Source of the DNA: an uncultured Candidatus Saccharibacteria bacterium
GTDB lineage: Bacteria; Patescibacteriota; Minisyncoccia; 2-02-FULL-40-12
Length of the DNA: 64,000 bases
Direction: 5' to 3'
Assembly (NCBI GenBank): GCA_964368135.1
Contig: CAYIZI010000001.1
Span: 42,926-106,925 of the forward strand
A program made the translations under genes and the position numbers. How positions within the stretch are numbered: the stretch's first letter is position 1; the number at the start of each line of letters is the position of its first letter. The notes under the pieces were generated by a model. It worked only from the letters and a program-made list of their open reading frames with translations. It had not been told where the DNA came from and made no database searches. Below, in pieces: positions 56,276 through 59,463 of the stretch.

Positions 56276-57278
56276 TCAAACCCATAAACACCATCAAAGC
56301 CGGCTCAAGGATCGTAGATAAATTCTTAGTCAGTTCGTCCATCTCGGCCTCATACATTTCGGCCAGATAAAGTAAAGTTTCATCCAAGCGGCCGGTTGAT
56401 TCGCCGATTTCAATCAAATGAGTCAAAATATGCGGGAAAAGGTCTGGCCTTCTTTCCATCTGACTGACTATTTTTTCGCCCTTAACCACGCACTTTGAAA
56501 TCTTCACAAGTTCGTTTCGGTAGACCAGATTAGTGGTCGTCTGCGAGGCAATTAAAAAAGCATTAATCACTCTGATGTCGCTTTTGATCAAAATTCCAAG
56601 GGTCCGGCAAATATTGGCCAAGTGATAATTCTTGAATATCGGACCAATCAAAGGCATTTTAAAGCTGGCCAGGTGCAGAAGATAGCGAAACTTATCCGAA
56701 GTCCTAAAAAAAACAATTAAACCAACCGCCAAAACAATAATCCCGGCAACTAAAAACAACCCATAGGCCTTCAAAAAATCAACGCTGGCAATCAGGGCCC
56801 GGGTAGTAAGGGGCAGGTTCACATTCAAACTGGCGAAAATCGGCAAAATCTTCGGGAAAATATAAAGAGTTAAAAGGCCGGCCAAACCTAAAGTAGCAAT
56901 AATTATAAAAATCGGATAAACCAGCGCGCCCATCACTTTACGCTGCAGGGCCTGCTTTTTCTTCATCTCATCGGCCAAATAGTTCAGGTTCTCGTCCAGA
57001 GTACCGCTCTCTTCGCCGACCCGAATCAAATTAATGGCCAGCTGGTCAAAGTTATGCCGAAACTTAGCCAAACTGCTTGAAAGATACTGACCGTTGGAAA
57101 CGTCTTTAATCACCTGGTCAAGAACCAATGACTTGGCGCCCGATGGACTTTGTTTTCTTAAAATATTTAAACTCTGGAGCAAGGGCACGCCGGCCTTAAC
57201 CAAAAAAGACAGCCGCTTGGCAAAAAGGGTTTTCTCTTTTACGGAAATTCTGGTAAATAACTCTCTTAATCTACTCAT
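56208..57278 (-). CDS. pilC: Type IV pilus platform protein PilC (T2SS F family)
   Basis: Two T2SSF repeats (FAKRLSFLVKAGVPLLQSL...; LANICRTLGILIKSDIRV...), three TM segments. Ends ITPIYEITRNL. Confidence 0.85.
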   Translation of the reverse strand: MSRLRELFTRISVKEKTLFAKRLSFLVKAGVPLLQSLNILRKQSPSGAKSLVLDQVIKDVSNGQYLSSSLAKFRHNFDQLAINLIRVGEESGTLDENLNYLADEMKKKQALQRKVMGALVYPIFIIIATLGLAGLLTLYIFPKILPIFASLNVNLPLTTRALIASVDFLKAYGLFLVAGIIVLAVGLIVFFRTSDKFRYLLHLASFKMPLIGPIFKNYHLANICRTLGILIKSDIRVINAFLIASQTTTNLVYRNELVKISKCVVKGEKIVSQMERRPDLFPHILTHLIEIGESTGRLDETLLYLAEMYEAEMDELTKNLSTILEPALMVFMGLIVGFIAVSIITPIYEITRNLSP

Positions 57279-58503
57279 TGATCACTCTCAAAACTTCCTC
57301 CAGAGTGGTAATGCCTTCTTTGGCTTTCCTGATGCCGTCCTCAACTATAGTGGTCATCCCATTGCCGGAAGCGATTAACTTAATCTCATTGGCCGAAGCC
57401 CTCCTTAAAAAAGCTTCTCTGACCATATTGTCTACAACCATCACTTCAAATATGCCGACTCGGCCCTGAAAACCGGTCTCGCCGCATTTCTCACAGCCCC
57501 TGCCGTAATAAAACTGCCAGTTGGAATCTGAACCCAAAACCGAATTCTGGAAAAAATTTTCCAAGCTCTTCTTTTCGGCGTCGGTCAGCTTTCTTAAAGT
57601 TTTGCATTTGGGGCAAATTTTCCTGACCAATCTCTGGGCAATGGCCAAGTTGACCGTTGAAGCAACCAGGTACGGCTCAACTTTCATATCTAATAATCTG
57701 GGCAAAGTGGTGGCCGCGTCATTGGTATGCAAAGTGGACAAAAGCAGGTGGCCGGTTAAAGCGGTGTTGACAGCTAAGGCCGCGGTCTCAACATCTCTGA
57801 TTTCGCCAACCATTATTATATCGGGGTCCTGCCGTAAAATTGACCTTAGTCCGTTGGCAAAGTTTAAGCCGACCCGGGAATTAACCTGAATCTGTTCAAT
57901 TCCTTCAACCGCGTATTCAATCGGGTCCTCCACCGTGACAATTGAAACATCTTTGTTGTTTAAAAATTTTAAAACGGTGTAAAGAGTGGTGGTTTTGCCA
58001 GATCCGGTCGGTCCGGTGGCTAAAATCATGCCGTGACTTTTTTTGGCGGCCCTCAAAACCTTTTCCTTGTCTGACGGACTAAAGCCAAGTTTATCCAAAG
58101 TGTATTCTTCTTCCTTATCTGATAAAAGACGCAAAACCGCGTTCTCGCCGTAATAGGTTGGAGCTACGGAAACGCGAATATCAATCGGCGCCTGCCCGTC
58201 AAAAGCAATACTGAACCGGCCGTCTTGAGCAGTCTGGTGTTCGTCAGTCCTTAAGTTTGATAAAATTTTAATTCTGGAAACCACCTCTGATTTGATTTCT
58301 CTTGGAAAAGTAAAAAAATCCTGCAAAACGCCGTCAATTCTAAACCTGATTCTGACTCCCTTTGTGCCCGGGTCAATATGAATATCCGAAGCCCGCGAGT
58401 TGTGGGCGTATTCTATTAAGTTGTCCACCAGGCTGATTAAGGAAATCTGTTCAGAGTTTTGCTCAATTTCCCGCTCAATTTTATTTCTTAGTTCTGTTGA
58501 CAT
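57271..58503 (-). CDS. pilB: Type IV pilus assembly ATPase PilB (GspE family)
   Basis: Walker A GPTGSGKTTTLY, Asp box, Walker B DPDIIMVGEIRD, His box GHLLLSTLHTNDA, tetracysteine CPKC...CEKC. Confidence 0.85.
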   Translation of the reverse strand: MSTELRNKIEREIEQNSEQISLISLVDNLIEYAHNSRASDIHIDPGTKGVRIRFRIDGVLQDFFTFPREIKSEVVSRIKILSNLRTDEHQTAQDGRFSIAFDGQAPIDIRVSVAPTYYGENAVLRLLSDKEEEYTLDKLGFSPSDKEKVLRAAKKSHGMILATGPTGSGKTTTLYTVLKFLNNKDVSIVTVEDPIEYAVEGIEQIQVNSRVGLNFANGLRSILRQDPDIIMVGEIRDVETAALAVNTALTGHLLLSTLHTNDAATTLPRLLDMKVEPYLVASTVNLAIAQRLVRKICPKCKTLRKLTDAEKKSLENFFQNSVLGSDSNWQFYYGRGCEKCGETGFQGRVGIFEVMVVDNMVREAFLRRASANEIKLIASGNGMTTIVEDGIRKAKEGITTLEEVLRVINE

Positions 58504-58583
58504 TAGAGAAAAATTAATCTTAATCGTATAATCTTATATCTTTCCTTTGAATATAGTCAACAAAAAAAGCCCAAAGAGCCATG

Positions 58584-58614
58584 GAACATAATAAATTCAG
58601 AAAAGGTGCGGGGT
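58584..58614. repeat. 31-bp direct repeat, copy 1
   Basis: gaacataataaattcagaaaaggtgcggggt, identical to 59430-59460. Covers the last 5 codons and stop of the membrane-protein gene plus 13 nt downstream. Confidence 0.95.
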
Positions 58615-59181
58615 GTATAGGCCAATAAACGCAGCCAGGGTGTTAAAAACGATATTGCCTAAAGTCATCGGAATCATCAGCCGCCAGTAAGGATAGTGAA
58701 TAAAACCAAGGGGCATGACCACCAAATCATCAGGCAGAGGGATAAAAGCGCCGTAGCTGAAAATGGCCAGACTGGCCAGCCACTTGGGATGAGACAAAGA
58801 CCATTCATAAGCCCGGTCAATGGTTTTTTGAATTCTTGAAGGGATAATTTCCCGGCCATGATATGCAATAACATAAGAAGTTGAATCACCCAAGAAAAGG
58901 CCGATGCCGGCCACAAAACCCAAAAGAAATGGGTTTAACCCGCCGGCGGCAAAAGTCATCACAAAGAGATAATAAGGAATCGGAACAAAGGTTGAGATGC
59001 CGCCCAAGAAAGCCAAAACAAAGGTAATCAAATAGCCGTTTCGGACGCCCAGAATCTCAATAATGTCAGCCGGCGGAATCCGGTAAATAAAAACTGTCCA
59101 GGCGACAAAAAGAGCAATCAGGATTAAAAAAGGAAATTGGGCTTTACTAACTATCCCCCGCACCTTTTCTGAATAGGTCAA
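58597..59181 (-). CDS. YqaA/DedA-like (VTT-domain-like) membrane protein
   Basis: 194 aa, TTG start. FLGGISTFVPIPYYLFVMTFAAGGLNPFLLGFVAGIGLFLGDSTSY. Both gene ends lie inside the repeat copies. Confidence 0.5.
   Translation of the reverse strand: MTYSEKVRGIVSKAQFPFLILIALFVAWTVFIYRIPPADIIEILGVRNGYLITFVLAFLGGISTFVPIPYYLFVMTFAAGGLNPFLLGFVAGIGLFLGDSTSYVIAYHGREIIPSRIQKTIDRAYEWSLSHPKWLASLAIFSYGAFIPLPDDLVVMPLGFIHYPYWRLMIPMTLGNIVFNTLAAFIGLYTPHLF
59156..59174. repeat. Inverted 19-bp copy of the repeat core
   Basis: ccccgcaccttttctgaat is the reverse complement of attcagaaaaggtgcgggg (58595-58613 and 59441-59459). Encodes residues 3-8 of the membrane protein. Confidence 0.95.
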
Positions 59182-59435
59182 GACGACAAACTGCCGAGTA
59201 TTCTTCTCTTAAGCTGAGAATATACTTTACCGAACTGTTTCAGTTTTTTCTCACGGTTTCTGACGTCTTGACCGTTTAGATAACCTTCACAATAAACTAA
59301 CTTCCAAGGAATGAAAGCTTTAGTCGACCGATTATATCCTAAATTATGTTCTCTTATCCTTTTTAAAATATTAGTTGTTATGCCAATATATAATTTCTTG
59401 TTTTTATCGCTTTTCAATAAATAGACATAGAACAT
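59178..59435 (-). CDS. Small stand-alone GIY-YIG nuclease-family protein (85 aa)
   Basis: MFYVYLLKSDKNKKLYIGITTNILKRIREHN...PWKLVYCEGY...RNREKKLK. Only the last 85 codons of track ORF 59178-59765 are credible. Confidence 0.75.
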   Translation of the reverse strand: MFYVYLLKSDKNKKLYIGITTNILKRIREHNLGYNRSTKAFIPWKLVYCEGYLNGQDVRNREKKLKQFGKVYSQLKRRILGSLSS

Positions 59436-59460
59436 AATAAATTCAGAAAAGGTGCGGGGT
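59430..59460. repeat. 31-bp direct repeat, copy 2
   Basis: Identical to 58584-58614. Contains the GIY-YIG start codon and begins 3 nt after the stop of the 345-aa gene. Confidence 0.95.
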
Positions 59461-59463
59461 TCA

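Follow-up and report, generated by a model that had tools for sequence, protein, structure and literature searches.

The window analyzed here, the whole 64,000-nucleotide stretch of DNA, probably contains an intact copy of a mobile element of about 300 bp, together with a broken 5′ end; in this element, a Slx1/UPF0213-type GIY-YIG nuclease gene sits between complementary arms. The complete, hairpin-bounded unit lies on the minus strand at 59156..59460 (~305 bp) and consists of a 5′ arm, a 5-nt spacer, the GIY-YIG open reading frame (ORF) and a 3′ arm; its limits are given by the arms, by the fold and by homologous units that end at the same places. Such ~300-bp units apparently form a widespread, sharply defined and so far undescribed family in Patescibacteria. 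More tentatively, the units may be autonomous transposons with only an 85-aa GIY-YIG nuclease acting on their own hairpin-closed DNA, which would make them the smallest autonomous DNA transposons known and the first GIY-YIG-driven class of prokaryotic insertion sequences.

The starting point is a pair of direct repeats with an inverted third copy. The 31-mer GAACATAATAAATTCAGAAAAGGTGCGGGGT has two exact copies, 846 bp apart, at 58584-58614 (copy 1) and 59430-59460 (copy 2), and the 19-mer ATTCAGAAAAGGTGCGGGG is found on the plus strand at 58595-58613 and 59441-59459 and, as the inverted copy, on the minus strand at 59156-59174. A sequence-only reading of the region had located these repeats exactly, and had interpreted the 846-bp span, which includes the nuclease gene and a YqaA-like membrane-protein gene (yqaA), as an integrated cassette or an invertible segment. 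Allowing up to three mismatches, the 31-mer has two matches in the window versus 0.00 expected in shuffled sequence, and the 19-mer has three matches versus 0.03 expected; neither the direct repeat nor the inverted 19-mer is expected by chance. Although the repeat search lengthens the direct repeat to 42 bp (93% identity), positions 32-42 align with native sequence of a relative (contig L045, described below), and the extension was rejected as part of the element.

The arrangement is not an assembly artifact, because it is identical in contigs of two replicate Hainich groundwater samples (ERZ1292643, 126.9 kb, and ERZ1292627) and in 4/4 contigs carrying the protein of the neighboring DUF5671 gene. 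Moreover, the Logan k=31 contigs L003 and L004 (runs SRR32696705 and SRR32696702) break exactly at copy 1, with their position 1 at window position 58613, as expected from a genuine 31-bp repeat. Such a repeat fragments k-mer assemblies, which may explain why many homologues are located on contigs shorter than 2.5 kb.

The unit family and its complementary arms

The closest GIY-YIG homologues are only ~70% identical to the window's protein and lie mostly on short contigs. The first three contexts examined had unrelated neighbors (NAD synthase and an aspartic protease; two pilin genes; an NYN-domain gene and an unknown gene), and in all three the gene is inside a perfect 19-20-bp inverted repeat starting CCCCGCACCTTT, with the 19-mer of L015 being identical to the window's. 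In particular, units L015 and L046, with proteins 67-71% identical, have the 19-20-mer of the window's 5′ arm as their own. A pattern search covering one genome per species found 29 loci, all labelled Patescibacteria or unclassified bacteria except L034, whose Gammaproteobacteria label is taken as a mis-assignment, and a metagenome pattern search added 80 further loci; arms were present in 28/33 loci, and then in nearly all 80 metagenome loci. A search of viral contigs returned no relatives. The protein family is large, as a profile search of 1.84 billion representative proteins yielded 3,415 clusters at E <=1e-10. The pooled set used below contains 83 anchored units, representing 58 distinct unit-and-site combinations in unrelated Patescibacteria contexts, 57 of them with usable flanks; the median length is 300 bp. 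Copies of the repeat flank GIY-YIG genes in many other genomes. Literature searches found no description of such a hairpin-bounded GIY-YIG element, with only a paper on Ssn nucleases coming close, and a search on YhbQ/UPF0213 found nothing; a Hainich study mentions GIY-YIG proteins only in its list of genes donated by Patescibacteria.

When both ends of the 57 distinct units are aligned, the stem measures exactly 19 bp. Here, 98.0% of the cells are paired, compared to 82.6% with shuffled partners (0/500 shuffles as high), while registers slid by 1-3 columns pair in 52% of cells or fewer and pairing falls to background from position 20. The outer positions 1-13 are nearly invariant (CCCCGCACCTTTT). 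The inner positions 14-19 include all four Watson-Crick pair types and vary between copies while remaining complementary within each, and the stem has 160 double-change cells versus 42 in shuffles. Among the mispairs, G.T (14) and C.A (10) are about equally common, with neither strand favored, which points to a constraint at the level of DNA rather than RNA; an RNA-structure reading was rejected, as the stems have no excess of G.U over C.A and the ORF-less copies carry flank repeats. In the fold of the window unit as single-stranded DNA (ssDNA; -49 kcal/mol, z -5.85), the arms form the closing stem, pairing with each other across the gene and not locally; local hairpins with the same stem are found in the micro hairpins and in the flanks of L123 and L124 (see below). 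Distant relatives (L096, L097, L110, L113, L120 and L122) have different yet complementary arms, for example ATCCAGCCCTTCCT and CCCCGCTAACCTATAGTT; as their proteins differ as well, the arms change together with the protein. Since freely varying positions are kept complementary on both strands alike, the two ends would either pair or be copied from one another, which in turn suggests a foldback form in ssDNA during the life cycle.

The nuclease gene itself (59178..59435, minus strand; MFYVYLLKSDKNKKLYIG...) encodes an 85-aa protein with one GIY-YIG domain (PF01541, E 8.8e-15) followed by a long, basic and very conserved C-terminal helix (..KLKQFGKVYSQLKRRI). PF01541 is the sole substantial Pfam match, overlapped by a weak match to the GIY-YIG-related T5orf172, and NCBIfam gave only sub-threshold matches to GIY-YIG-containing families. 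Family members are single-domain proteins of 81-90 aa, and their alignment has six invariant residues, Tyr5, Tyr16, Arg26, His30, Asn31 and Glu62. The AlphaFold2 model (pLDDT 91.7) predicts a single compact domain plus the C-terminal helix; neither Pfam nor the model shows a separate DNA-binding domain in the 85-aa protein. The best solved-structure matches, by both sequence and structure, are the UPF0213 proteins BH0048 and EF2693 and Slx1, ahead of I-TevI and UvrC, and profile matches are to the UPF0213 proteins 1zg2 and 1ywl and to SLX1. The only ORF in the unit is that of the GIY-YIG nuclease, and no recognized transposase class (DDE, DEDD, HUH, serine or tyrosine) is found in it.

Boundaries, flanking repeats and the empty site

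The boundaries can be seen on a Berkelbacteria scaffold with two copies of the unit 181 kb apart. These copies are ~90% identical from ACCCCGCAC to GTGCGGGGT and unrelated outside, so that the homology between them ends exactly at the outer ends of the arms, and they are flanked by differing repeats, TCAA and TTGA. More broadly, a direct repeat abuts the arms over at least 3 bp in 26/29 units and over at least 4 bp in 23/29; in the pooled set, 40/57 units have a flank repeat of at least 4 bp, compared to a mean of 13.9 and a maximum of 21 after permutation. At loci without TTGA, a matching locus-specific repeat is present in 13/16 (for example, CTGTGG, CAAA, TCAA, TTAT, TAAAA or GAAC), whereas re-paired flanks gave a mean of 2.0 and a maximum of 7 in 5,000 trials. 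Terminal inverted repeats, the 19-bp arms, thus define the ends of the units, and target-site duplication is seen for the family, with none at the window copy.

The duplicated tetramer is TTGA at 27 sites and its complement TCAA at 2. The target logo, GGGG/TTGA/CA, is G-rich before the tetramer and has C and then A after it; as a continuous sequence it reads GGGGTTGAC (also GGGGTTGACA), and it mimics the unit's own right junction, GCGGGG-TTGAC. Further, the pattern TTGAYN-N16-18-TANNNT starts at the right end in 19/56 units, where the per-position background is 7e-4. Units are therefore often placed on the -35 box that serves the next gene, and the duplication restores this box. At the preferred target, the nuclease gene is co-directional with the downstream gene. 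The host organisms have very small genomes, and insertion of the family at their promoter -35 boxes and within their operons rewrites gene ends. A hybrid promoter at the left junction, with TTGA+CC as the -35 box and TANNNT after the arm, was also considered and rejected: TANNNT occurs in 7/28 TTGA units versus 9/30 others.

Shortened derivatives accompany the full units. Seven mini units without an ORF (70-149 bp) and two micro hairpins (28-30 bp) have the same outer arms, most with 4-5-bp flank repeats, including those at L065 1926-1953, L065 266-295, L048 4772-4841, L005 87-219, L039 3268-3395, L049 2774-2884, L079 1417-1525 and L018 4822-4966. One micro hairpin is nested in a full unit, between its 5′ arm and ATG, and the mini units share just the outer 10-13 nt with the adjacent full unit. 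Truncated genes with a single arm are found in L028, L044 and L102, and solo or truncated arms at other loci too. Overall, these comparisons argue strongly for the mobility of the family.

An empty site was found in L045, a contig from the same sample. Its YqaA ortholog (P0053) is 85% identical, starting MKVNRAQ.. and ending ..LYAPI, and its upstream ORF matches the C-terminus of DUF5671 (52% identity, E 1e-13). In L045, the DUF5671 stop is followed by 17 nt (ATCTCGCAGTTTTTTGA) and then by ATG AAA GTT... of yqaA; the unit is absent, and yqaA is free of arms at both ends. Because yqaA occupies the same place beside DUF5671 in a relative without the unit, the comparison indicates that it is a resident gene and not cargo of the mobile unit. 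At the junction, the window has AGTGAA, the unit and then GATAGTTAGT, where L045 has TTTGAATGAAAGTTAAT; the alignment indicates that the window unit entered at the TTGA just before the ATG of yqaA, inside a DUF5671-yqaA operon. The sequence-only reading had also called for an empty site, picturing the 345-aa gene directly followed by the pilB promoter; an empty site does exist, in a relative, and its order is DUF5671, 17 nt and yqaA. Of the proposed integrated cassette, what stands is a mobile cassette with GIY-YIG as its only gene; its limits are 59156-59460 rather than the 846-bp segment. Moreover, the arrangement is not invariant among relatives, the repeat has other copies beside GIY-YIG genes and assembly error does not account for it; the opposite outcomes were those that the sequence-only reading would have counted against itself.

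Copy 1 matches the first 31 nt of the unit exactly and occupies the place of ~30 nt that hold the native yqaA stop (..LYAPI* in L045), with similarity to L045 resuming directly after it; it has no partner arm, and folding of the region gave no local fold. These features mark it as a solo, truncated 5′ end of the unit that overwrote the stop region of yqaA. Either it is what an internal deletion left of a second copy, or it is a short conversion tract for which the intact copy was the template. Recombination between the 31-bp direct repeats could lead to loss of the nuclease gene together with yqaA; among same-strain contigs, no variant with this loss was found. Beyond yqaA, L045 has a small membrane-protein ORF (728-829; MKMTLVFSAIIIGLGFYVLGQ...), and the window keeps only a disrupted remnant of it past the solo arm (58554-58586).

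Proposed mechanism and competing explanations

Ssn nucleases offer a template for how the unit might move. According to Chenal et al. (Nat Commun 2025, PMC11893778), these nucleases bind a hairpin repeat (NTS) in ssDNA only, cut a few bases upstream of it and tolerate a split or extended loop, and an NTS-ssnA-NTS architecture is described there as identical to that of an insertion sequence. In the proposed mechanism, the conserved outer 13 bp and the junction bases would be the likely protein-recognition part. By analogy with Ssn and its NTS hairpin, the nuclease would recognize the conserved base of the stem once the arms have paired in ssDNA, and would cut there, freeing or nicking the unit. 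A 4-nt staggered cut would be made at GGGG/TTGA/C sites, which mimic the element's right junction, and host repair or ligation would do the joining that completes the move. If the nuclease does move its own unit, the known size limit for an autonomous transposon would be lowered and a new catalytic class would be added to prokaryotic mobile DNA; Ssn/NTS-type repeat systems would then be explained as domesticated descendants. The units offer a testable origin for Ssn/NTS-like pairs of nuclease and repeat. As a prospective tool, the conserved 13-nt recognition part combined with the free 6-bp part of the stem could give structure-guided ssDNA nucleases.

Several observations weigh against a mobile element driven in this way. 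The window unit has no flank repeat, which makes it one of three such units among the 29; a loss of ~5 nt at the right junction, comprising the right-hand copy of the duplication and the ATG, would account for this, with the length of the loss estimated from a relative that is 15% diverged. The solo end took the place of ~30 nt instead of simply adding sequence. In principle, TTGA could be conserved sequence of the element instead of a duplication; only the ~20 non-TTGA cases discriminate between the two. Exact-protein look-ups of PilB, DUF5671 and YqaA retrieved identical same-strain contigs with no excision or circle junction, no inversion and no empty site within the strain; the sequence-only reading had proposed circular junctions, the inverted orientation and the empty site as signs to look for. 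Copy number per genome appears low, and the 64-kb window has these three arms alone. Finally, a GIY-YIG nuclease alone is unable to join DNA, and a separate joining step is needed.

This last point also lends weight to an explanation that we consider unlikely, in which the unit lacks autonomy and depends in trans on an unlinked transposase of a conventional kind (a DDE enzyme making 4-bp duplications, for example) and the GIY-YIG gene is a passenger in the loop. Terminal inverted repeats combined with 4-bp flank repeats are what DDE transposons produce, and the ORF-less mini units move, or moved, without the gene. However, across the 58 unit-and-site combinations and many lineages, the arms enclose only the GIY-YIG gene or nothing, and no transposase gene stands beside any unit in the gene tables inspected. 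Distant proteins have other arms, as expected if the protein reads the arms, and separate recognition of the two ends in double-stranded DNA does not explain exact complementarity at freely varying positions. The spread of a free-standing homing endonuclease gene by double-strand-break repair is considerably less probable. It would have the arms act at the RNA level, for example as an RNase III site or in translational control, thereby limiting the harm done to the host operon, and it draws on a GIY-YIG gene that lies between conserved genes in one strain and is absent from a close relative, and on a 19-bp stem enclosing an ORF, which would serve RNase III well as a substrate. The known control of phage homing endonuclease genes by hairpins likewise counts in its favor. 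Homing, however, makes no target-site duplication and needs homologous flanks, whereas locus-specific flank repeats are found here at more than 40 different sites; neither the ORF-less mini units nor the 28-bp hairpins, with their flank repeats, can be homing genes; the stem mismatches are unbiased toward G.U on the coding strand; and the protein is without a separate DNA-binding domain.

Still improbable, if less so than homing, is a domesticated, Ssn-like host system that restricts or modulates incoming ssDNA during natural transformation, with units that are not currently mobile. Ssn/NTS works in this way in Neisseria, and the Ssn authors suggest domestication from an insertion-sequence-like element (PMC11893778); in addition, the genes of L123 and L124 each lie between NTS-like local palindromes, and the window unit and L011 are beside type IV pilus genes. 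Yet repeat numbers are low in the sequence examined, not in the hundreds, and movement is indicated by site-specific flank repeats, by an empty site in a close relative, by two diverged copies at different sites of one genome and by a nested insertion. Such a system is also compatible with a mobile element, as the two are not mutually exclusive. The reading with the least to recommend it, and a very improbable one, takes the whole 846-bp segment from repeat to repeat, GIY-YIG and yqaA together, as one cassette, or as a segment inverted between the 19-mers. The 31-bp direct repeat does bracket both genes and inverted 19-mers are present, but a relative has yqaA at the same place without repeats, and units of the family never contain a second gene. 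The idea of an invertible segment finds no recombinase among the neighboring genes and a single orientation in every same-strain contig.

Known nuclease-repeat systems and genes at the locus

Among described systems, Ssn/NTS bears the closest resemblance to the proposed mobile unit. Both have a small, single-domain GIY-YIG protein (below ~150 aa; 85 aa here) whose gene is bracketed by its own repeats, which are local hairpins in Ssn and here arms that pair with each other, both have a C-rich/G-rich stem (..TTCCCGCG..CGCGGGAA.. in NTS versus CCCCGC..GCGGGG here), and both have conserved bases just outside the stem and additional repeat copies elsewhere. The Ssn gene lies between two local hairpins, whereas the half-sites flank the gene here, making it the loop of one split hairpin. 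The accessible text of the Ssn paper does not report the 4-bp flank duplications, target preference or empty site found here; the nearest solved relatives of the present protein are UPF0213 and Slx1, its hosts are Patescibacteria and its copy numbers are low. The Ssn SRM motif, HGTCWYN(0-2)YYVSBRHN(0-5)WNVSBRGN(0-2)RNCYNB, has 0 matches within 500 bp of the window gene and of the 57 related units. CDD places UPF0213 and Slx1 in sub-families other than cd10448, that of Ssn. Two relatives at 43-45% identity, L123 (~2455-2495 and 2834-2875) and L124 (2458-2498 and 2836-2877), have the local palindrome GGTCTCCACCCCGCYTCTCGCGAGAAGCGGGGTCCAAAACC in direct copies on their flanks, in an Ssn/NTS-type layout. 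As these loci and the micro hairpins show the local-hairpin form, the split-hairpin and local-hairpin architectures probably grade into each other.

REP/RAYT and IS200/IS605 systems share an enzyme gene bracketed by inverted hairpin repeats, short dispersed non-autonomous copies and a presumed folded-ssDNA substrate; their enzymes are HUH/Y1 transposases, not GIY-YIG proteins. Further, IS200/IS605 elements have subterminal hairpins, no terminal inverted repeats and no target duplication, whereas the ends of the present units pair with each other and are flanked by 4-bp duplications. Classical insertion sequences and miniature inverted-repeat transposable elements have in common with the units their terminal inverted repeats, short duplications, target preference, truncated or ORF-less derivatives, and nested and multiple copies. 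The units differ from classical insertion sequences by having no DDE, DEDD, serine, tyrosine or HUH transposase and by ends that keep exact complementarity at positions where the sequence varies freely. The smallest insertion sequences known to us are ~600-700 bp long, so that a ~300-bp unit is less than half of their size. GIY-YIG homing genes (T4 Seg and I-TevI relatives) share the catalytic fold, the position of a selfish gene between host genes and the presence/absence polymorphism; bounding repeats, flank duplications, many unrelated sites and the lack of a DNA-binding domain set the units apart from them. The closest matches in sequence and structure are Slx1/UPF0213 (YhbQ-type) proteins, and Slx1 acts on branched DNA as a structure-specific nuclease, in keeping with recognition of the stem base. 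These are, however, cellular repair or uncharacterized proteins, and we know of no bounding repeats or mobility associated with them.

All genes in the region are on the minus strand, which reads, in order, the DUF5671 gene (ending in TAG TGA), copy 2, the GIY-YIG ORF, TGA CCT, the inverted 19-mer, yqaA and copy 1. The resident DUF5671 membrane-protein gene upstream (59464..60501, 345 aa, PF18920) has its stop 3 nt before the 5′ arm. Copy 2 reads ACCCCGCACCTTTTCTGAAT TTATT ATGTTC, and its outer part, ACCCCGCACCTTTTCTGAAT, is the 5′ arm (59441..59460, from the repeat search); that copy 2 follows the TAG TGA of the 345-aa gene and contains the leader and the ATG TTC of the nuclease gene agrees with the earlier account. 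The 3′ arm, ATTCAGAAAAGGTGCGGGG (59156..59174), shares its position and sequence class with the 57 distinct units and now also encodes N-terminal codons of yqaA. It was correctly placed in the N-terminus of YqaA before, where its extent had been given as residues 3-8; it spans codons 3-9 of the ORF.

The resident yqaA gene (58597..59181) encodes a VTT/DedA membrane protein (PF09335) in a 194-aa ORF whose TTG start overlaps the TGA stop of the GIY-YIG gene as TTGA. Since the native ATG AAA is absent from the window, yqaA must start at this TTG (59181) or at a GTG inside the arm (59163); both starts are used in public gene calls, giving 194 and 188 aa. The reading frame is otherwise intact, and both termini are now arm-encoded. 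The solo copy (58584..58614, an exact repeat comprising arm, TTATT spacer and ATGTTC) supplies the last codons and stop, TPHLF*, and is followed by the ATG TTC CAT GGC... stump, both as read originally. Downstream of copy 1 are a weak, native terminator-like hairpin (58568-58580) and then a pilB promoter-like site, TTGACT-18-TAAGAT (58531-58560, from a consensus scan), both of them pattern matches only. An Rfam scan of the region gave a sole match to U54 (E 0.55), a sub-threshold chance snoRNA.

The GIY-YIG gene is uncalled in the public gene tables of the source contigs (L001 5040-5323; L002 3584-3885), and its exact protein is therefore not on record; genes of this family are probably under-annotated. 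A spurious 195-aa ORF (59178-59765) overlaps the gene. Many of the proteins retrieved by the profile search (P0073-P0222) are 200-340 aa long with the nuclease part at the N-terminus, and could represent fusion proteins or read-through past the 3′ arm into the gene downstream; among the short homologues, several have an arm-encoded ..KVRG at their end. Genes resembling those of type IV pili or type II secretion (pilB/pilC, pilins) adjoin two units, at 57271-58503 and downstream in the window and at 1-4000 in L011. This adjacency is maybe more than coincidence, since Ssn acts on transforming ssDNA in Neisseria, though two cases prove nothing. In L035, a (GA)n dinucleotide run (~1765-1800) lies just downstream of the right end of the unit.

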